64,000 bases of DNA from an uncultured Caldisericales bacterium. GTDB lineage: Bacteria; Caldisericota; Caldisericia; JAAYUI01. The notes under the pieces were generated by a model that saw nothing but the letters and a program-made list of their open reading frames with translations, had not been told where the DNA came from and did no database searches. A program made the translations under genes and the position numbers. Shown here piece after piece: positions 2,809-12,979 of the stretch; within the stretch, counting starts at the first letter, position 1, and every line of letters begins with the position of its first letter. Location: contig CAZTGD010000006.1 of NCBI GenBank assembly GCA_964613055.1, positions 5,340-69,339 of the forward strand, given 5' to 3'.

Positions 2809-3801
2809 ATGTCATTTGCTGATTGGATCCAAATTGGAGTTTCAGTTTTACTGGCTTTTATTGGTATTGGATTTTCAATATACTCAATTACAAGGAATAA
2901 AGCTGAGTCAAAATTGATAAAATCCTACAATGATAGCTTTGATAAGAAGATTGATGGATTAGACAAGACACTTACCAAAGTTTATATAAGCCATTTAGAA
3001 GGCAAGAATATAAAGAAGCAACCTGATACTCTGGACGATCCCCAAAAAGACGATGCGTATAGCATTATTTGTAAATTGAATGACAGACAAAAAAGGTTTC
3101 TTTCTGCTATCGATCTTTTTCCAAAACAATATGGTATCTCAAAAATTGCTGGTCATGATGGGTATGATGAGAAATTCAAAGTCAATGATATCGATCTTAA
3201 TAGAGCACAATTTATCAAAGGCGATAAAAAGATAAAAAGTACTATCACTACACTCAAAACAATCGATTTAATTGGAGAAGGTTATGATGAAAAATTACCT
3301 AACTGCAATCACTTTTTCGTACTAAAGAAGACTGGGGAGGAAGTTCTATCCATACTGCGAGGAAATAAAGGTGACCCATTAATTAATTTAATAAATGACA
3401 TCAATGAAGATGTTTCTAAATATAACGATAATTTGTATAGAATTCTAGAAGATCTGCATAACCTAAAATCAGAAAGCTATTATCTTCAAGACTGTACAGC
3501 AGGAAATCACAAATTTTACAGATGTGATAAGGTAATTGCAGATCCAAAGAATTTGAAATCTCTTATAGAAAACGAAAATATAACTGAATTGGATAAGGAT
3601 GAAAGGTTTGAATATCTCGGTGAGTGTCTATCTCGCGAATTAAGGCAAGCAAGACAAAACTCTCTTTTATCAGACGGAAAAGAAATTACTAAATCTCTCT
3701 ACTTTGTCAGTAATTCAGCCTGTGGCTCACAGTACCTTTGGGTAAAGAATAATCAGGATAAGGTACGCGAAATACTGAATAAACAACCATCACAAGTATA
3801 A
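2809..3801 (+). CDS. Hypothetical membrane-anchored protein (single N-terminal TM helix) inside an AT-rich island
   Basis: 330-aa ORF with a hydrophobic N-terminus (WIQIGVSVLLAFIGIGFSIYSI). Local GC is clearly lower than in flanking genes. No recognisable family. Confidence 0.5.
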   Translation: MSFADWIQIGVSVLLAFIGIGFSIYSITRNKAESKLIKSYNDSFDKKIDGLDKTLTKVYISHLEGKNIKKQPDTLDDPQKDDAYSIICKLNDRQKRFLSAIDLFPKQYGISKIAGHDGYDEKFKVNDIDLNRAQFIKGDKKIKSTITTLKTIDLIGEGYDEKLPNCNHFFVLKKTGEEVLSILRGNKGDPLINLINDINEDVSKYNDNLYRILEDLHNLKSESYYLQDCTAGNHKFYRCDKVIADPKNLKSLIENENITELDKDERFEYLGECLSRELRQARQNSLLSDGKEITKSLYFVSNSACGSQYLWVKNNQDKVREILNKQPSQV

Positions 3802-3815
3802 CTCCTAACATAGCT

Positions 3816-4142
3816 GTGCTACTCACTATGATATTAATTCAAGTTGCCTTCAGGTCAAGAATATCTATGTCTTTACCTGTTGACTTTCTTTTTTCACTGA
3901 TTACAATTTATTACATGGAATGGTTTGTTAACAACTTGGGATCAGTAGCTCTTATCGTAATAATCGTTGGTGTTGTGCTTGCCTTACTACTGTATCGTTC
4001 TTCATTGAGATCGCTGGGTTTTGGCAGGAACGTATCTGAGAAGTCTGGTGATGCTCCAAAGGATCATAAGGAAGGAGATAAAAAACTCAAAAACAAATTG
4101 AAGAACATGGCAGAAGAAACTAAATGGGACTGTTACTACTGA
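3816..4142 (+). CDS. Small hypothetical membrane protein. The true start is possibly the internal Met near 3915 (MEWFVNNLGSVALIVIIVGVVLALLLY...).
   Basis: ORF with one clear TM helix followed by a charged Lys/Glu-rich tail. AT-rich context. Confidence 0.35.
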   Translation: MLLTMILIQVAFRSRISMSLPVDFLFSLITIYYMEWFVNNLGSVALIVIIVGVVLALLLYRSSLRSLGFGRNVSEKSGDAPKDHKEGDKKLKNKLKNMAEETKWDCYY

Positions 4143-4623: not shown

Positions 4624-5505
4624 TCAATGTAAGAATAATTGTACTCTCGACCAAACACTCTTGATATTAGCAGACACCTCACCATCCTGCTCAACTATTA
4701 TCTTTCCCTCTGATAGAATCCTTGGCACCGATTCATCATATCGAATGCGACCGACAGACATCACACCATTCTCTTTTGCAACCCGGTCAATCTCAGCCGA
4801 CACTTCTGGATTTATGTCCCACTTGTTGATACACATGGCTACCTTCATTTTGAAGCTGTCTGCTAGCTGGATGACACGTTCCATGTCATGCTTACCCGAC
4901 TGGGTGGGTTCTGTTACCAAGAGAAGCAGGTCAGCCCCGCTTATAGAAGCAATTACAGGACATCCAACGCCAGGGGGTCCATCTACAATCAGGACATCAG
5001 AATTATCATCCCTGGCTTTGACCCTCGCCTTTGACTTGACCAGTGAAACGAGTTTCCCTGAGTTCTCGCCTCCCGCATCCAGCAGGGCGTGGATCATTGG
5101 ACAATATTTCGTATCCGATTCCATCCACACACCCCTCTTCGGGGTGGACAGCTTGATAGCGTTAGCTTTACAAACATAGTCACATAGCGAACAGCCTTCG
5201 CATTTTAGTTCATCAATCCTGTAGATAGTTTTACCACTTTTATCAGTCGATTTGTCAATAGCATCGAATCGACAGTGTTCATAGCAGAGACCACAAAAGG
5301 TGCATTTGTTCTGATCTATTTCTGCCAGCAGACCGCTGTGAAAATCGTGGGTCCGAGTTTTTTCAGGCTTCATCAGGATGTGCATGTTCGGTGCGTCAAC
5401 ATCACAATCCGATATCACAGAGTTTTTTGCTAAGCTAGCAAACGATGCTGATACAGTGGTTTTGCCACTGCCCCCCTTACCACTAATTATTACAAGCTCT
5501 TTCAT
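4624..5505 (-). CDS. MinD/ParA-family P-loop ATPase with an inserted 2x[4Fe-4S] ferredoxin domain
   Basis: Deviant Walker A GKGGSGKTT. Two CxxCxxCxxxC clusters (CTFCGLCYEHC and CEGCSLCDYVC). 4-bp overlap with the upstream paralogue. Confidence 0.8.
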   Translation of the reverse strand: MKELVIISGKGGSGKTTVSASFASLAKNSVISDCDVDAPNMHILMKPEKTRTHDFHSGLLAEIDQNKCTFCGLCYEHCRFDAIDKSTDKSGKTIYRIDELKCEGCSLCDYVCKANAIKLSTPKRGVWMESDTKYCPMIHALLDAGGENSGKLVSLVKSKARVKARDDNSDVLIVDGPPGVGCPVIASISGADLLLLVTEPTQSGKHDMERVIQLADSFKMKVAMCINKWDINPEVSAEIDRVAKENGVMSVGRIRYDESVPRILSEGKIIVEQDGEVSANIKSVWSRVQLFLH

Positions 5506-6332
5506 GCGATACCCTCAATCCTGTTCATCAACTGCCTGAAAAGATCAGCGTATTCTGGGATTGACTGAACGACTGTGTCTCCCATAGAATAAGCCTTGGC
5601 AATCCTCATGTCATTTGGAATTCGAGCGAGTATCGGAATCCCCTTTGCATCACAGAACTTTTCAACCCCATCATCACCAATATCACTACGGTTTATCATA
5701 ACGCCAAAACGTAATGCTCTTCTCTCCAGCAAAGCCACTGATAGTTTCAGGTCATGCAGTCCAAAGGGTGTAGGCTCTGTGACCAACACCACATAGTCAA
5801 CTCCGTCAACAGCCTCTATTGCCGGACATGTGTTGCCGGGTGGTGCGTCTATGATGTTCAATCCATTCACTGAAATGTGTTTTTTGACAGACGATATGAG
5901 TTGGGGAGACATCACATTGCCTATCTTGAGCTGACCCTGAACCAGGGTTGTCTCGCCATTTCTAAATATACTTATCTCTCCTAGTTTCTTGGGGTTGGTA
6001 GTGATCGCGTCATGAGGACAGACAATCCAACCACCACAGCTGTGGCACATTTCATCATATACAATAACCTTTTTTGGGAGAGTGATAATTGCATTATACT
6101 TACAGAAATCACTGCACACGCCACATTTTGTGCAAAGTTGGTCGTTTACTGAAGGGGTCTCTATTGACACATCGGTTTGGTCAATCAAATCACCACCGAT
6201 GAAGAATGCATCGTTGGGCTCCTCGACATCACAGTCGAGAAGGGTAACAGGGGTCTTGGCAATTCTGGCAAGATTACATGCAACAGTGGTCTTACCCGTA
6301 CCGCCTTTTCCAGAAGCTATTGCAATCAACAT
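5502..6332 (-). CDS. MinD/ParA-family P-loop ATPase with an inserted [4Fe-4S] ferredoxin domain (paralogue)
   Basis: GKGGTGKTT Walker A. Cys clusters CTKCGVCSDFC / CHSCGGWIVC. Confidence 0.8.
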   Translation of the reverse strand: MLIAIASGKGGTGKTTVACNLARIAKTPVTLLDCDVEEPNDAFFIGGDLIDQTDVSIETPSVNDQLCTKCGVCSDFCKYNAIITLPKKVIVYDEMCHSCGGWIVCPHDAITTNPKKLGEISIFRNGETTLVQGQLKIGNVMSPQLISSVKKHISVNGLNIIDAPPGNTCPAIEAVDGVDYVVLVTEPTPFGLHDLKLSVALLERRALRFGVMINRSDIGDDGVEKFCDAKGIPILARIPNDMRIAKAYSMGDTVVQSIPEYADLFRQLMNRIEGIA

Positions 6333-6366
6333 ATTAGTGATATGAATATCCTTAAGATGCTTATAC

Positions 6367-6684
6367 TTAATTCAGATTATGCTTTTCAATGGCTTTAGAG
6401 ATAGTGGATTCATCGGTCACGATTATCTTAAGGCCTGCTGACTCCAGCACATCCTGTGCCTTTGGCCCGCAGTTCATACACACCATCACATCAATGCCAG
6501 CTTTTGAAACAGTTTCAGCTGATTTAATACCAACTCCATGAGCCGCACTAAGATTGGCGGTATTGTCGATGATCTTGATCTCTTTGGTTTCAGTATCAAA
6601 AATAAGGAAACTCTTTGCTCTGCCAAACACATCCTCGATGGCTGAGTTCAGATTGTCGCCTGCAGTGGGGAATGCTATCTTCAT
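6367..6684 (-). CDS. NifX/NifB-like dinitrogenase FeMo-cofactor-binding-domain protein
   Basis: 105 aa. MKIAFPTAGDNL...KIIVTD resembles the Nitro_FeMo-Co domain family. It commonly sits beside Fe-S MinD-like ATPases. Confidence 0.7.
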   Translation of the reverse strand: MKIAFPTAGDNLNSAIEDVFGRAKSFLIFDTETKEIKIIDNTANLSAAHGVGIKSAETVSKAGIDVMVCMNCGPKAQDVLESAGLKIIVTDESTISKAIEKHNLN

Positions 6685-6756
6685 ATTTCACCTTCCATGA
6701 TCGATTTTGGTGCACCGACATCAAGTCAGTGCACAGCGCTAGATTATACAGCGATT

Positions 6757-6984
6757 CTATTCGTTGTCGTTTTTCTTATCGGTGGTAGTCTGTTGTGAGC
6801 CCCAGCCAAAGAAGCCACGCCCAAATCCACGTCCTCTACCGAATCCCCGGCCCAGACCTCTTCCCGATCCTCGACCGAAACCATAGGGACGGTCTATAGG
6901 TTTTCCACCATTGCTACACGGTCCAAGCCTTCTACCTGTTCCTGCGCCCCTTCCGTCTGGTCCTTTTCCATCAAAACCTGGCAT
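6757..6984 (-). CDS. Small Gly/Arg-rich protein with RGG/FGRG repeats
   Basis: 75 aa, ...GFGRGSGRGLGRGFGRGRGFGRGFFGWG.... Strong SD (AGGAGGTGAG) immediately upstream on the minus strand. First gene of the operon. Confidence 0.5.
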   Translation of the reverse strand: MPGFDGKGPDGRGAGTGRRLGPCSNGGKPIDRPYGFGRGSGRGLGRGFGRGRGFGRGFFGWGSQQTTTDKKNDNE

Positions 6985-7174
6985 ATCTCACCTCCTAATA
7001 ATTTATCGCAATAACATTCTACGATTGTAAATATTTATTACAATTAAATTGCAATTATTGATTCCATCATCGATCCTAATCAATAGGCATAGCTGTCGAT
7101 CTCAGCTAGCCTAATTGATTTACCTTGAAACCGATTGCCTGCTAAATACTATTGACGGGGAAGGTAGGAAATAT

Positions 7175-8467
7175 ATGAAAAGAACCCTTGCAAAAGACGC
7201 CGTTGACCATATTGGCGAGACAATCACCCTTGAGGGGTGGCTTCACAACGTCCGTGAACTCTCAGATTTTTCATTTGTTATTCTGCGTGATCGCTCAGGC
7301 ACTGTTCAGGGAATAATTGAGAATCCAGACTTTGAGGTGCCAGAGCTGACCAATGAATCTATCATCAGGCTTCATGGCAATGTTGTAAAATCTGAATTTG
7401 CAAGAGCAGGCTTTGAGGTCAGGGTTACAGGGATTGATATCATTGAAAAGGTTGAAGAAGAACCACCAATCCAACTCAACAAGAAGAACGTCAAGGAACA
7501 CCTGGAAAGGGTGCTTGATTTCAGATACTTCTCTTTGCGCCATCCATCAATCAAATCGATATTCGAGATTCAATCAACCATAGCACAGGCATTCAGGGAT
7601 TACCTTCTGTCGCAGGATTTCACAGAAATCAGGACACCAAAACTCGTTGCTTCAGGGACAGAAGGTGGAGCAAACCTGTTTAGGGTCGATTATTTCGAAA
7701 CTAACGCCTATCTCGCTCAATCTCCACAATTCTACAAGCAGATGATGGTCGGTGTCTTTGAGCGTGTATTTGAGATAGGACCCGTTTTCAGAGCTGAACC
7801 CCATAAGACAACCAGGCACGTGAATGAATATACATCTTTGGATATGGAGATGGGTTTCATCAGGGATGAATTTGATGTGATGGACACTCAAGAGGGCATC
7901 CTCAGGCAGATGGTGAACTCAGTCATTGAGAATCATGGAGACACACTACAAACGATGAAGGCTGAGATATCAATCCCCGATGAGATTCCAAGGCTCAGGA
8001 TGAGCGAGGTACACGATATCCTGAAGAATAAATACAAGGTTACCTATGAGAAGAACTTTGACATAGATCCCAATGGTGAAAAAAAGATATGTCATTGGGC
8101 AAAGAAAGAATACAACTCTGACTTTGTCTTCATCACTGGCTATCCAAAGATGAAGCGACCCATGTATACCATGCCTGATCTCGATCACGAGGGAGAAACA
8201 AGGGGCTTTGACCTTATCTACAGAGGCACAGAAATAACGACAGGCGGACAGAGGATTCATGATCACAAAATGCTTAGTGACAATATCGCTGGTTTTGGAA
8301 TGAATCCGGATGATTTCACTTTCTACACGGATGTTTTTAAGTATGGTATCCCACCGCATGGCGGTCTGGCAATGGGTCTCGAGCGTATCACCTGCCAGAT
8401 GCTGGGCCTGAAGAACATTCGTGAGGGTGTGCTGTTCCCACGTGACCTTGAGAGACTCACCCCCTAG
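7175..8467 (+). CDS. aspS: Aspartyl-tRNA synthetase, archaeal/eukaryotic type (short form, no GAD insertion)
   Basis: Class II aaRS motifs (FRAE, GGLAMGLERI). About 430 aa from the ATG at 7175, which has GGAAGGTAGG upstream. The ORF track start at 7115 is an over-extension. Confidence 0.85.
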   Translation: MKRTLAKDAVDHIGETITLEGWLHNVRELSDFSFVILRDRSGTVQGIIENPDFEVPELTNESIIRLHGNVVKSEFARAGFEVRVTGIDIIEKVEEEPPIQLNKKNVKEHLERVLDFRYFSLRHPSIKSIFEIQSTIAQAFRDYLLSQDFTEIRTPKLVASGTEGGANLFRVDYFETNAYLAQSPQFYKQMMVGVFERVFEIGPVFRAEPHKTTRHVNEYTSLDMEMGFIRDEFDVMDTQEGILRQMVNSVIENHGDTLQTMKAEISIPDEIPRLRMSEVHDILKNKYKVTYEKNFDIDPNGEKKICHWAKKEYNSDFVFITGYPKMKRPMYTMPDLDHEGETRGFDLIYRGTEITTGGQRIHDHKMLSDNIAGFGMNPDDFTFYTDVFKYGIPPHGGLAMGLERITCQMLGLKNIREGVLFPRDLERLTP

Positions 8468-8470
8468 TAG

Positions 8471-9730
8471 ATGAAATCAACCTTTTTTATCCACACACTT
8501 GGCTGTCAGATGAACAAGGCTGACTCCGAGTTTTATGCGTCAGTATTGAAGAGTATCGGATATGAGGCATCCGATGAGCAATCAGCAGATATCATGATGG
8601 TGAACACTTGTGCTGTTCGACAGGCATCCGTTCACAAGATGGAGTCACTCATTGGTAAGTGGGTTGCCATGAGAAATAAAACAGGCAAACCAAGAAGGAT
8701 AGGTGTCATAGGTTGTGTGCCAGCCATCGATATTCAGTCATTCAAATCCAACCATCAGCAGGTAGATTTTGTCATCGGTACCTACCCCAACAAGGATCAG
8801 ATGATAGAAGCAATGAAGGATACATTTGAGTTTGCGAGTAGTATAAATCTTAAAACAGAATCTCAAGTTTCTGCATACGTTCCGATAACCTCTGGTTGTA
8901 ACTGTTTCTGCACATATTGCATTGTCCCCTATACGAGAGGGCTCCTCAAATCTAGAAATGAGGATGAAGTTCTTGATGAGGTAAAAAACAGAATATCGAA
9001 CGGAGCAGTTGAGATTGTGCTTCTCGGTCAGAATGTCAATGAGTTTGGACTGGATAAAGGCGATAAGCACGGTTTCATAAAGTTGCTTGAGCGTATCGAC
9101 AGTATAAAAGGTTTGATGAGACTAAGATTCATAACCAGCCATCCAAAAGATATGGATGACCATACTATCGAAAGGATGTCAAAACTTGATAGACTCGCGC
9201 CTTACTTCCACCTTCCAGTTCAATCCGGTTCAGATGATATACTCAGACGGATGGCTAGGGGATATTCAAAAGATCAATACCTTCATCTCGTCAAAAAGAT
9301 AAGAGAAGAGTTTCCAGTGTGTGCAATTACAACGGATACAATCGTTGGATTCCCTGGCGAGACCGAAGGGCAGTTTCAAGAAACGTTAGATTTGATGGAT
9401 AATGTGCAATTCGATCAGGTTTTCTGTGCCATGTACTCTCCAAGACCAAAAACAGCCGCCCAGAAAATGACTGGAAGATGCACCAGTGAAGAACTCCACA
9501 GGCGAATAAACCTTCTACTGGAGAAACAGAAGGTCATCGGCAAACGAATTACAAACAACTACCTGAACACTCATACAAAGGTTCTCACTCTCAGCTACAC
9601 TGACAATAATACAACAGGCATCAATGAAAGAGGAAGGTTTGTAGAGATAGATGGAAGACACCCAATCGGCAATATTGTTAATGTTTTCATCAAATCCGTT
9701 GACGGAAGGCTGAAGGGGATAATCGTCTGA
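8471..9730 (+). CDS. MiaB/RimO-family radical-SAM methylthiotransferase. Size and context suggest an MtaB-like tRNA ms2t6A enzyme.
   Basis: N-terminal MTTase domain (FIHTLGCQMNKADSE). Radical-SAM CxxxCxxC (CNCFCTYCIVP). C-terminal TRAM-like segment. 419 aa. Confidence 0.8.
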   Translation: MKSTFFIHTLGCQMNKADSEFYASVLKSIGYEASDEQSADIMMVNTCAVRQASVHKMESLIGKWVAMRNKTGKPRRIGVIGCVPAIDIQSFKSNHQQVDFVIGTYPNKDQMIEAMKDTFEFASSINLKTESQVSAYVPITSGCNCFCTYCIVPYTRGLLKSRNEDEVLDEVKNRISNGAVEIVLLGQNVNEFGLDKGDKHGFIKLLERIDSIKGLMRLRFITSHPKDMDDHTIERMSKLDRLAPYFHLPVQSGSDDILRRMARGYSKDQYLHLVKKIREEFPVCAITTDTIVGFPGETEGQFQETLDLMDNVQFDQVFCAMYSPRPKTAAQKMTGRCTSEELHRRINLLLEKQKVIGKRITNNYLNTHTKVLTLSYTDNNTTGINERGRFVEIDGRHPIGNIVNVFIKSVDGRLKGIIV

Positions 9731-10947
9731 TGGATGCAAAAACATACGAGTTTGTAAGACATTGCGAGAATAATCTGATTGATAGATTTGCCGATGTTGA
9801 CCAGATTGGTGACATTAACCTGGAAAAGGTACTTTATGCTTTCAGAGTAGTCGGTTTGACCACCTCAGACCTTGCAGGTTCTACTGGCTATGGACTGGGG
9901 GATGCGGGACGCGACAAACTTGAACGGGTATTCTCTCATGTCTTCGGTACAGAATCAGCACTGGTTCGACCACAGATAGCATCGGGAACCCATGCCATTG
10001 CTTCAGTGTTGTTTGGTCTCTTACGACCTGGAGATAGAATGGTATCCATAACAGGTCGACCGTATGACACGCTTGAAGAGGTGATTGGTATCCGTCAATC
10101 AAGAGGTTCTCTTGCTGAGTTTGATATTGATTATGCAGAATGCGACTGGAGACTCGAACAGTCGACAGATTCCCTTGACGAACCTACCAAAATCGTCTAC
10201 ATCCAGCGCTCCAGCGGGTATCGACCAGGTCCCTCCGTTACCATCGAACAACTCGAAGACTGGATAAACAGAATAAAGGTCAGATCCCCACAATCTGTCA
10301 TCGTCGTAGACAACTGCTACTGCGAATTCGTAAGTGTAAAAGAGCCTGCTGATGCAGGGGCTGACATCACCATAGGATCGCTTATCAAGAACCCTGGCGG
10401 AGGCATCGCCCGAACGGGTGGTTACATTGCTGGCATAAAGGATCTTATAGACAGGATCGCAACTCGAGTAACCGCCCCTGGTGTTGGTGCTGAAATCGGT
10501 GCTACATGGGGATTCCTAGATTCTTTTTTCCAGGGTATCTACGTCTCACCTCCAGCTGTTGCCTCAGCAGTCAAAGGGGCAATCCTCATTTCTGAATGCC
10601 TTTCTCAGTTGGGTTATGGTGTCTACCCAAAGATCACCGATGACAGGGCAGACATAGTAACATCGATTGAGCTACCTGACAGGGAGTCATTCATGGCTGT
10701 TGGATCAGCCATTCAAACCATGTCTCCTCTCGACTCAACGGCAATTCCAGAACCGTTTCCTCAGGGTGGCTATACAGCAGATGTAATGCTTGCAGGTGGA
10801 GGATTTGTGTCTGGCTCTACACTTGAGCTTTCTGCAGATGGTCTTGATAAATCACCATACACCATCTATATTCAGGGTGGTGTGAATATGAATCATATTC
10901 GTCTGGGGTTATCTAATATTATCTCAGCTCTCGAAAGGGTGCGATGA
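9730..10947 (+). CDS. Methionine-gamma-lyase-family PLP protein (aluminium-resistance / YnbB-like)
   Basis: GYGLGDAGRDKLERVFSHVFGTESALVRPQIASGTHAI closely matches the conserved YnbB-family N-terminal region. Confidence 0.8.
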   Translation: MDAKTYEFVRHCENNLIDRFADVDQIGDINLEKVLYAFRVVGLTTSDLAGSTGYGLGDAGRDKLERVFSHVFGTESALVRPQIASGTHAIASVLFGLLRPGDRMVSITGRPYDTLEEVIGIRQSRGSLAEFDIDYAECDWRLEQSTDSLDEPTKIVYIQRSSGYRPGPSVTIEQLEDWINRIKVRSPQSVIVVDNCYCEFVSVKEPADAGADITIGSLIKNPGGGIARTGGYIAGIKDLIDRIATRVTAPGVGAEIGATWGFLDSFFQGIYVSPPAVASAVKGAILISECLSQLGYGVYPKITDDRADIVTSIELPDRESFMAVGSAIQTMSPLDSTAIPEPFPQGGYTADVMLAGGGFVSGSTLELSADGLDKSPYTIYIQGGVNMNHIRLGLSNIISALERVR

Positions 10948-11339
10948 AACGACTGGATGTTTCAACCAACAAGAGAGAGGAATTTATAGACATTACACAC
11001 CTGATATCTTCAGCTTGTGCAGAATATGGGTGGAGCAGTGGTGTGCTAACCCTGTTCGTACCCCATACCACCTGTGGTATCACCATAAACGAAAATGCAG
11101 ACCCACATGTAAAAGAAGACATGAACTCTTATCTTTCGAAACTAATCCCTCAATCTCAATATTTCAAACACGCTGAGGGGAACTCTGATTCACACATTAA
11201 AGCATCGCTTGTTGGTTCATCAGTTTCCCTGATAATAGAAGATGAGAATCCTAAACTCGGCACATGGCAAGCTGTATACCTTGCTGAGTTTGATGGACCA
11301 CGAAGGAGAAAAGTTTGGCTGAAATTTCAAATGGATTAG
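10944..11339 (+). CDS. YjbQ/UPF0047 family protein (secondary thiamine-phosphate synthase-like)
   Basis: HTTCGITINENADPHV...HIKASLVGSSVSL...GTWQAVYLAEFDGPRRR are family-typical motifs. Confidence 0.75.
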   Translation: MKRLDVSTNKREEFIDITHLISSACAEYGWSSGVLTLFVPHTTCGITINENADPHVKEDMNSYLSKLIPQSQYFKHAEGNSDSHIKASLVGSSVSLIIEDENPKLGTWQAVYLAEFDGPRRRKVWLKFQMD

Positions 11340-11932
11340 TACTGGGCATCATTTCTGCCACTCATCCTCAGTATGTTTTCCTAGCTGAAGACAACTCTAT
11401 TCTTATTGAGAAAAAGCTTGTTAGAACAAGGATGACAGGGAACAGAATCATACCCAGCGTTCGGTCTTGCCTCGATGAGATAGGTTGCGGGATTCAATCA
11501 GTCGATACATTTCTCGCATTATCAGGACCAGGAAGCATGACCGGTATACGCGTTGGACTTGCTCCTGTCAGGGCTTGGGCATACACGAGCGGCAAAAGCG
11601 TTGTCACCCTTGATACACTTTCGGTTTTAGCGGAGGGATTTGAGAGACCAACACTAGCGCTTATGTCTGCCGGACAGGTCAATTGGTGGATTCAGGCATT
11701 TTCAGGTTCTATTTCAGATACACCACGACTTGTAGACAGAAGCAAGCTTTATGATTACGACAAAGTTGATTGGAATTGGGTCACGCCAAGTAGAATTGAA
11801 CCTAAACATGCAAAGAAGATAACTCAATCACCAACCCCTACACAGGTGCTTTCATCCATGAACTCTGCGCCTGCAACAAACTGGGTGAAAGCTAGACCCA
11901 GATACCTTTTTGAGCTTTCAAAGAATGGATAA
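11315..11932 (+). CDS. tsaB: tRNA t6A biosynthesis protein TsaB (inactive Kae1/TsaD paralogue)
   Basis: ASKHA-fold N-terminal region (LGIISATHPQYVFLAED). It is adjacent to tsaD. The exact start is uncertain, since the ORF overlaps the yjbQ 3' end. Confidence 0.7.
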   Translation: MAEISNGLVLGIISATHPQYVFLAEDNSILIEKKLVRTRMTGNRIIPSVRSCLDEIGCGIQSVDTFLALSGPGSMTGIRVGLAPVRAWAYTSGKSVVTLDTLSVLAEGFERPTLALMSAGQVNWWIQAFSGSISDTPRLVDRSKLYDYDKVDWNWVTPSRIEPKHAKKITQSPTPTQVLSSMNSAPATNWVKARPRYLFELSKNG

Positions 11933-11983
11933 ACAATTGAATAATGTAATCAATATAATTCAAATAAGGATTACAGAACACCA

Positions 11984-12979
11984 ATGATTTCACTTGGTAT
12001 TGAAACCTCTTGCGATGATACAGCTGTTGGTATAGTCGATGGTGTAGATATCATTGCGCAGGTCAAATCATCACAGGACAGGGTACACGCCGAGTGGGGT
12101 GGCATCGTTCCTGAACTAGCATCTCGTGCTCATCTGGAAAACATAATCCCAATAATAGATGTTGCCATGAAGGATGCGGGTTTAACAAAGGATGGGATTG
12201 ATATCATCTCTTGTACCTATGGACCTGGATTGGTCGGCTCATTACTGGTTGGCATTGAGACAGCCAAAGCTTTGAGTTATATCTGGAACAAACCACTGGT
12301 CGGGGTTAACCATCTGCGTGGGCATGTCGCTTCAGCGATGCTTGCCAATCCTGAGATGGAACTACCATCGCTCGGATTACTCATCTCAGGCGGACACACT
12401 GAAATAATAATGTTCAATCCTGATTTCACACTCAAGCTCATATCGACAACGAGAGATGACTCTGTTGGTGAGAGTCTCGACAAGTTTGGAAGGGTGCTTG
12501 GTCTTTCATACCCAGCAGGACCTGAGCTGGACAGGATGTCTCTGATTGGTGATTCCTCAAAAGTAGAGTTACCCACGGTCAAACTCAAGGACAATAGTCT
12601 GGATTTCAGCTTCTCAGGTCTCAAAACAGCAGGTATCCGGGCAATACAGCGCTATCCAGAATTACCTAAAAGAGACCTTTCAGCCTCATTTATGAAAGCT
12701 ATTAGCAATCAATTGTTTGATAGATTGATGACAGCTACTGTTCGATACAAACCAGAATCCATTTTCTCTGTTGGTGGGGTTTCAGCAAGCAGGTATATTA
12801 GATCGCGTATAAAGAGTTTCTGTGAAACTATGAATCTTCCATTGCATGTACCACCAACAGAATTATGTACTGATAATGGTGCAATGATTGCGTATTGTGG
12901 TTTACTCTACTACCGATTCGGTATTAAATCAGGTCTTGGTCTTCAACCTATATCCAGACTCCCGCTTGATTCTGTCTGA
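11984..12979 (+). CDS. tsaD: tRNA N6-adenosine threonylcarbamoyltransferase TsaD
   Basis: GIETSCDDTAVGIV signature. Metal-binding H..H motif (VNHLRGH). 331 aa. Confidence 0.9.
   Translation: MISLGIETSCDDTAVGIVDGVDIIAQVKSSQDRVHAEWGGIVPELASRAHLENIIPIIDVAMKDAGLTKDGIDIISCTYGPGLVGSLLVGIETAKALSYIWNKPLVGVNHLRGHVASAMLANPEMELPSLGLLISGGHTEIIMFNPDFTLKLISTTRDDSVGESLDKFGRVLGLSYPAGPELDRMSLIGDSSKVELPTVKLKDNSLDFSFSGLKTAGIRAIQRYPELPKRDLSASFMKAISNQLFDRLMTATVRYKPESIFSVGGVSASRYIRSRIKSFCETMNLPLHVPPTELCTDNGAMIAYCGLLYYRFGIKSGLGLQPISRLPLDSV

Follow-up and report, generated by a model that had tools for sequence, protein, structure and literature searches.

What is a small, glycine- and arginine-rich protein doing at the head of an operon that otherwise encodes a NifX-like protein and a pair of ferredoxin-bearing ATPases? 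The question is raised by a 64,000-nucleotide (64-kb) stretch of DNA from an uncultured Caldisericales bacterium (assembly GCA_964613055.1, contig CAZTGD010000006.1), the whole of which is referred to here as the window. Its minus strand carries, at 4624-6984, four closely packed open reading frames (ORFs) encoding, in order, the 75-residue (75-aa) Gly/Arg-rich protein, the NifX-like protein and two paralogous MinD/ParA-type ATPases (A and B). A first-pass annotation, made from the letters alone, had described this four-gene arrangement with ORF coordinates that proved correct, along with the strong Shine-Dalgarno site ahead of the small ORF, and had judged the linkage of such a protein to an iron-sulfur (Fe-S) module to be unfamiliar. 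That linkage has a precedent, as the 75-aa protein is a short-form member of a catalogued family, DUF5320 (Pfam PF17253), within an operon of a kind described in Desulfovibrio, the ORP ('orange protein') type (PMC6345978, PMC8359166). The window operon is a minimal ORP-type core with a DUF5320 gene added, and we hold the identity of both, together with their conserved linkage, with high confidence.

The 75-aa protein scores 46.4 bits against the DUF5320 profile, well above the gathering cut-off of 27, in a match that spans positions 1-70 of the 99 in the profile. All 120 homologues among the matches listed for it bear PF17253. The family is very large, a profile search returning 11,409 representative clusters at E<=1e-3, and follows a common plan of an N-terminal Cys motif, an (F/M/W)GRG repeat and, usually, a C-terminal coiled-coil-like helix. 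This amphipathic segment (profile positions ~71-99) is typical of the family and not strictly defining. Across a 66-sequence alignment that includes the window protein, the N-terminal motif reads MPGxDGTGPxGxGxxTGRxxGxC. Its invariant positions are G8, P9, G13, T16, G17 and C23, while conservation reaches 90% or more at M1, P2, D5, G11, R18 and G21. The window protein conforms to this motif with MPGFDGKGPDGRGAGTGRRLGPC, which contains its one Cys (position 23), continues through an (F)GRG core (residues 34-62, pI 12) and ends in a short polar tail, SQQTTTDKKNDNE, the coiled coil typical of most family members being absent. The same short form is displayed by the proteins of three further loci (L001, L003 and L090) and by others such as P0012, P0013, P0015 and P0020. 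Variation in copy number is also seen: tandem DUF5320 duplicates occur in 9 of 80 loci (L009, L014, L018, L021, L024, L029, L032, L040 and L078), and some members of 160-180 aa hold two DUF5320 stretches in one protein (P0253, P0254 and others).

The composition of the 75-aa protein (32% Gly, 13% Arg and 11% aromatic residues; isoelectric point, pI, 11.2; net charge +7.5) is what first drew attention to it. The FGRG/RGG repeats then reported are half right, with three FGRG and seven GRG units present and all seven RG dipeptides contained within GRG, while RGG triplets number zero. The proposal of intrinsic disorder fares better. An AlphaFold2 model built on the 66-sequence alignment has a mean per-residue confidence (pLDDT) of 54, a predicted template-modelling score (pTM) of 0.12 and no secondary structure, consistent with a protein that is disordered in isolation. 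A sequence search of the PDB with the protein gave no meaningful match, and NCBIfam holds no model for it. Compared with its orthologue in L001, a close relative, the gene shows 76% amino-acid and 77% nucleotide identity, with nonsynonymous and synonymous divergences of dN=0.146 and dS=0.936 (dN/dS ~0.16), similar to the values of neighbouring genes. No DNA-level tandem repeat was found in it, the GRG units being encoded by varied codons. The ORF is a genuine gene.

The remaining three genes place the operon. The NifX-like protein, a single Nitro_FeMo-Co (IPR003731) domain, matches the structures of TM1290 (1RDU; 1.6e-16), the Desulfovibrio gigas ORP (2WFB; 3.6e-14) and MTH1175 (1EO1; 9e-11), and is 37% identical to the ORP of Desulfovibrio sp. 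X2; it is homologous to all three, the Desulfovibrio orange protein being Orp8. Both ATPases carry a deviant Walker A motif (SGKGGTGKT in ATPase A). The 293-aa ATPase B has two complete CxxCxxCxxxC ferredoxin motifs, as had been reported of both enzymes, whereas the 276-aa ATPase A has one complete motif and a degenerate second (CHSCGG-WIVCP) that retains three of its four Cys residues, the third being missing. This loss, through a one-residue deletion, is common to the orthologues of ATPase A in L001 (6678-7508) and L003 (6591-7421), while both motifs are complete in 144 of 149 homologous ATPases, and it suggests that the second cluster of ATPase A in the window clade may be ligated by three Cys residues or be absent. 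In BLASTP comparisons with the two ATPases that follow the ORP gene in Desulfovibrio sp. X2, ATPase A scores 214 bits against the first and 102 bits against the second, and ATPase B 246 bits against the second and 112 bits against the first. Judged by these scores, the window enzymes are one-to-one orthologues of the first and second X2 ATPases, and since each has its own best match there, the two paralogues and their order are ancient.

The orp genes of Desulfovibrio vulgaris are split between two operons (orp7-orp8-orp9 and orp5-orp4-orp3). Of their products, Orp8 is the orange protein, and Orp3 and Orp4 are ATPases of MinD type, each bearing two ferredoxin motifs (PMC6345978, PMC8359166). 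Orp3, Orp4 and Orp8 co-purify and take Fe-S clusters from MrpORP (PMC6345978). MrpORP (Orp9; Mrp/NBP35 + Nitro_FeMo-Co) was not found in the 64-kb window, where the ATPase profile matches only the two operon genes, and neither DUF134 nor any other ORP accessory gene was found there.

The conservation of the small gene was followed in 80 loci anchored on the ATPases, drawn from species-representative genomes of many bacterial and archaeal phyla, whose six-frame ORFs were scanned with profiles built in this analysis. Because the iterated NifX profile took in the tail and the coiled coil of fused proteins and cross-matched standalone DUF5320, genes were assigned by best score. Absence of the small ORF from all homologous operons, an outcome the first-pass annotation had named as refuting its reading, is not what was found: a standalone DUF5320 gene is present in 37 of the 80 loci, and in 27 of the 45 with flanks of at least 4 kb on both sides. 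Against the 37 loci observed, ~1.4 would be expected by a crude estimate that assumes 3 copies per 3 Mb. The copies lie upstream of the ATPase pair on the same strand in 42 of 46 instances (median distance 808 bp), a placement expected for 25% at random (binomial P=3e-21). The NifX-like gene is present in 68 of the 80 loci, bearing out the remark that its pairing with the ATPases is common in anaerobes. The four-gene operon also recurs in L001 and L003, both close relatives. Neighbourhoods anchored on DUF5320 itself (n=10) give the converse view, eight holding both NifX-like and ferredoxin-ATPase genes within 6 kb. The DUF5320 gene is thus a regular accessory of the ORP-type module across Bacteria and Archaea and not a peculiarity of the window.

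An archaeal locus reached through a Woesearchaeota-named protein, P0102 (L091:5060-9030), encodes a DtxR-type repressor, two DUF5320 proteins, a NifX-like protein, a single ferredoxin-ATPase, an EncFtn-like protein, DUF134 and a ZIP transporter, an iron-homeostasis setting of the module; in L090 a NifU_N gene lies immediately upstream; and in L007 (6745-10063) a DUF5320-DUF134 pair adjoins a molybdate-type ATP-binding cassette transporter (SBP_bac_11, BPD_transp_1, ABC_tran+TOBE) and a TrmO-like gene. Because of the iron genes of L091, the NifU_N gene of L090 and the mod-type transporter of L007, the neighbours fit iron, Fe-S or Mo chemistry.

A more intimate connection is displayed by proteins in which the two families are joined. 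Several NifX-like proteins of the 80 loci extend at the C-terminus into a (GMGRG)n repeat and, beyond it, the amphipathic helix known from DUF5320. Fusions of Nitro_FeMo-Co with DUF5320 that exceed both cut-offs of the curated Pfam models occur in L071, L079, L065, L023 and L042, and NifX-like proteins with Gly/Arg-rich tails are found in 22 of the 80 loci. For the gene in the position of orp7, the ORP locus of Desulfovibrio sp. X2 and a related contig served as proxies for Desulfovibrio. In both, the gene that immediately precedes that of the orange protein (L088:6562-6900 and L089:6414-6752) encodes a 112-aa Gly/Gln/Arg-rich (GQGRG)n protein ending in LRxRDGSCRR. The X2/L089 protein is a compositional analogue of DUF5320. 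In a third locus, L093, the order is DUF134, DUF5320, a 117-aa NifX-like protein, two ATPases and a PAS/sigma-54 activator, and therefore a true DUF5320 occupies the Orp7 position there. Fused outright, as tails of NifX-like and DUF134 proteins, or encoded separately at the Orp7 position, cationic Gly/Arg-rich segments are thus a recurrent accessory of the module, whether in cis or in trans.

Two further variants of the NifX-like protein accompany these tails. The members of a divergent subfamily (~146-177 aa) end in 'MPG[CY]' and then a Gly/Arg-rich tail. This junction is similar to the MPG with which DUF5320 begins, as though a gene of DUF5320 type had been joined on in the same reading frame. 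Others (L010:3809-4504, L011:3705-4517 and L046:6449-7021) bear a Gly/Arg-rich linker and then a CxCPxCGH...PC knuckle (e.g. 'CVCPSCGTKVPHQTGVPCY'), which looks like another metal-binding tail variant in these loci.

A model for the role of such segments is offered by IssA of Pyrococcus furiosus, which joins an IPR003731 NifX-like domain to a 70-residue cationic Gly/aromatic/Arg-rich tail that holds its only Cys. IssA stores iron and sulfur as anionic thioferrate, a polyanion that the tail is proposed to wrap electrostatically, and in many of its relatives, MTH1175 among them, the tail is shorter or absent (PMC5524996). Since the window pairs a tail-less NifX-like protein with a separate tail-like polypeptide, we propose that the polycationic, aromatic (F)GRG repeat of DUF5320 would act in trans in the manner suggested for the IssA tail, wrapping or neutralising an anionic metal-sulfur species held by the NifX-like domain. 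Candidate ligands would be an Fe-S polymer resembling thioferrate or else a cluster of thiometallate type, e.g. the Mo-Cu-S cluster of ORP. The N-terminal Cys peptide may serve as a docking or ligand element that stands in for the covalent link of the fusions, while loading or transfer, ATP-dependent and redox-active, would fall to the ATPase heterodimer. Reasoned by analogy, this mechanism is a serious possibility that falls somewhat short of probable; taken as one explanation with the identity of the genes and their linkage, it leaves our overall confidence evenly balanced. More speculative, and somewhat unlikely in our estimate, is the broader suggestion that DUF5320 may represent a so far unrecognised and very large class of disordered proteins of prokaryotes with an inorganic ligand. 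Each would be a detachable polycationic tail, templating or shielding anionic Fe-S or thiometallate polymers for NifX-like carriers and handed on by the ATP-driven, redox-active ATPase pair; it would then correspond in trans to the tail of IssA and supply the Orp7-type component that is missing from the ORP machinery of anaerobes.

Several observations weigh against a tail that works in trans. The fusions consist of the repeat and the coiled coil without the N-terminal Cys motif, and the window protein of the motif and the repeat without the coiled coil, leaving the repeat as the sole element that the two share. A Gly/Gln/Arg-rich tail is also fused to the DUF134 protein of L093. DUF5320 occurs in L005 and L007 with DUF134 only, no ATPase or NifX-like gene lying within 6 kb, and since both partners are missing there, its function is not strictly dependent on them. 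The likeness between the IssA tail and DUF5320 is one of chemical character, an analogy rather than an established homology, and the two mentions of DUF5320 in the searchable literature are incidental, with no experiment on any member. The X2/L089 proteins in the Orp7 position match neither PF17253 nor any other Pfam family, and since the X2 protein lacks the PF17253 match we do not claim that Orp7 is a DUF5320 protein in Desulfovibrio. In the 2011 study of Fievet, DVU2107/Orp7 itself was reportedly absent from the set recovered by pull-down of the ORP complex. Five components of that complex are listed, and Orp7 is not one of them (PMC6345978).

The strongest competing explanation keeps to nucleic acids, along the lines of the first-pass annotation: the RG-rich disordered region would bind RNA, DNA or G-quadruplexes or drive condensation, perhaps regulating metal-cluster genes together with DUF134, which is predicted to be a helix-turn-helix protein similar to region 4 of sigma-70. 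The protein is indeed RG-rich, cationic and disordered, and DUF134 is a frequent companion, found within 6 kb in 8 of the 10 DUF5320-anchored neighbourhoods (all except those of the window's own lineage) and as the sole family partner in L005 and L007; the tailed DUF134 protein of L093 points the same way. In the ATPase-anchored sample DUF134 was recorded in 16 of the 80 loci, probably an underestimate, the profile having been built from 4 seeds. By a motif scan, a DUF5320 protein of Methanosarcina mazei has also been picked out, along with a DUF134 protein, as a potential G-quadruplex binder (PMC7565180). Yet no DUF134 gene occurs in the 64-kb window or in the orthologous loci L001 and L003, and the 75-aa protein must therefore work without it here. 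The Pfam-verified fusions, moreover, join the repeat to a metal-cluster-binding Nitro_FeMo-Co domain, and the aspartyl-tRNA synthetase (AspRS) and MiaB-like neighbours of the window are divergently transcribed and not conserved at distant loci. With the eukaryotic RGG/RG or GAR (glycine/arginine-rich) regions of FUS, fibrillarin and nucleolin the window protein shares clustered RG dipeptides, interspersed Phe, a high pI and predicted disorder, but it lacks RGG triplets and any RRM, KH or other RNA-binding domain, and it differs in its metal-cluster genomic partners and in a strictly conserved N-terminal peptide with an invariant Cys, foreign to RG-motif RNA binders. The RNA-binding or condensate-type label rested on composition alone, and a role in nucleic-acid binding seems unlikely; metal-sulfur handling is the more likely function of DUF5320.

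A second alternative would make DUF5320 a MinE/ParB-like partner or activator of the ATPases, its N-terminal peptide, with its Arg, docking on or stimulating the dimer and its cationic region binding nucleoid, membrane or cargo in a positioning or cell-division system. The deviant Walker A motifs of both ATPases are typical of the dimeric MinD/ParA/NifH class, in 15 of 45 cases the gene immediately ahead of the ATPase pair is DUF5320, and most members possess a C-terminal coiled coil, which the short form in the window lacks. A role in cell division has been proposed for the ORP complex (PMC4672049), itself a hypothesis, and MrpORP localises to the poles (PMC6345978). In L003, murD-ftsW-murG-murB (8544-12219) follow immediately after the four-gene operon, an adjacency to the dcw cluster that is confined to this one relative and that the window does not share. 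Cluster chemistry is what the ferredoxin inserts suggest, as do the NifX-like and Mrp partners, and with DUF5320 present without ATPases in L005 and L007, we regard this alternative as quite improbable. Finally, there is practically no chance that the 75-aa ORF is spurious, a chance low-complexity frame in a locally GC-rich stretch: it is short, of low complexity and overlapped by an antisense 40-aa ORF, but the Pfam match above cut-off, the strong Shine-Dalgarno site, the dN/dS of ~0.16 against L001, the lack of a DNA tandem repeat and a gene position conserved across dozens of phyla together reject that reading.

The locus has a wider interest. The ORP-type module belongs to anaerobes only, among which it spans a great many phyla of Bacteria and Archaea, with cell division and metal-cluster handling as its proposed roles, and the small gene that heads it, from a family of more than 11,000 sequence clusters without a functional literature, has so far been ignored. 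The pairing of DUF5320 with the module is widespread and catalogued in anaerobes but unstudied, and the reading of the protein as a tail in trans is a hypothesis raised here, not a result. By virtue of the conserved position, the NifX-like fusions and the likeness to the thioferrate-binding IssA tail, what began as a compositional curiosity now carries a testable hypothesis, and the same three features suggest a way in which Fe-S or Mo/W-S species might be stored or moved about by anaerobes. Annotators should take note that small 'RGG-like' prokaryotic ORFs beside NifX-like genes are real PF17253 genes.

The features of the operon and of the tailed NifX-like subfamily are collected in Table 1. 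The two ATPase ORFs share 4 nt (ATGA), and ATPase B is translationally coupled through this overlap to the gene of ATPase A upstream of it. The tentative sigma-70-like promoter sits in the divergent intergenic region that the operon has in common with the AspRS gene; no sigma-54 promoter was found upstream of the operon (the best match has 3 mismatches and lacks the GG/GC core), no sigma-54 activator signature (GAFTGA-type motif) in any frame of the 64-kb window, and no intrinsic terminator on the minus strand after 4624.

Table 1. Positions of the operon genes, their candidate control signals and the members of the NifX-like subfamily ending in 'MPG[CY]'
Feature	Position	Strand	Basis
Short-form DUF5320 gene, 75 aa	6757..6984	-	Pfam PF17253, E=9.5e-12, 46.4 bits
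NifX-like (Nitro_FeMo-Co / IPR003731) gene, 105 aa, single domain, no tail	6367..6684	-	Pfam PF02579, E=1.3e-21
MinD/ParA-type ATPase paralogue A, 276 aa	5502..6332	-	Pfam CbiA/ParA + Fer4
MinD/ParA-type ATPase paralogue B, 293 aa	4624..5505	-	Pfam CbiA/ParA + Fer4
Shine-Dalgarno site of the 75-aa ORF, AGGAGGTGA	6988..6996	-	AGGAGG ends 6 nt before the ATG at 6984; read from the sequence
Candidate sigma-70-like promoter, TTGTAA, 16-nt spacer, TAGAAT (tentative)	7016..7043	-	Consensus scan, 9/12 matches
'MPG[CY]' NifX-like subfamily members	L088:6059-6565; L014:3803-4336; L025:1652-2173; L048:2724-3164; L069:5466-5906		

The flanks of the operon are of a different character. On the plus strand before it lie FixB/FixC/FixX-like genes (160-2755) and then, at 2809-4142, two ORFs of 330 aa and 108 aa without a Pfam match, which occupy the space between the FixABCX-like genes and the operon. 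The matching position in L001 holds a restriction-modification pair (RE_EcoO109I + N6_N4_Mtase), and the segment looks like a variable island. On the divergent side are the genes of AspRS, a MiaB-family radical S-adenosylmethionine enzyme, a methionine gamma-lyase-like protein and TsaB/TsaD. For AspRS, the listed ORF (7115-8467 on the plus strand) begins at a TTG at 7115 and gives 450 aa, but the 429-430 aa of its closest homologues fit a start at the ATG at 7175 (MKRTLAKD...), with which the divergent intergenic region would measure ~190 nt. These homologues, labelled in their sources as the non-discriminating aspartate--tRNA(Asn) ligase type, are 98%, 84%, 82% (L003, a 2.2-Mb genome), 74% and 70% ('Caldisericales bacterium', the nearest with a name) identical to the window enzyme, the next being 53%. 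Elsewhere in the window is a tRNA-Tyr of 86 nt, the form with a long variable arm that is typical of bacteria, and L003 has mur and ftsW genes. Taken together, these features make a member of Caldisericota the probable source of the window.

Two known systems frame the window operon. With the ORP operons of Desulfovibrio it shares an ORP/Orp8-like Nitro_FeMo-Co gene followed by two paralogous ferredoxin-motif ATPases, and a small Gly/Arg-rich gene before the ORP gene, as in L088, L089 and L093. Whereas the Desulfovibrio genes are divided between two divergent operons, those of the window are all in one; control in D. vulgaris is exerted by sigma-54 and OrpR, signals of which the window has neither the activator signature nor the promoter; and the degenerate second Cys motif of ATPase A is a departure of the window. 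Storage proteins of the IssA/IssX type differ in that their cationic Gly-rich segment (pI of at least 8-9) is the C-terminal tail of the same chain, whereas in the window it is a separate, upstream-encoded polypeptide, the 105-aa NifX-like protein having no C-terminal tail; the Pro-rich linker of IssA is absent in the window; and IssA assembles thioferrate-protein particles (PMC5524996), while the window system is known from genes alone. Across these differences the two have in common an IPR003731 domain paired with a disordered, cationic, Gly/aromatic/Arg-rich segment bearing a single Cys, and the window NifX-like protein matches MTH1175, a tail-less member of the IssA clade.

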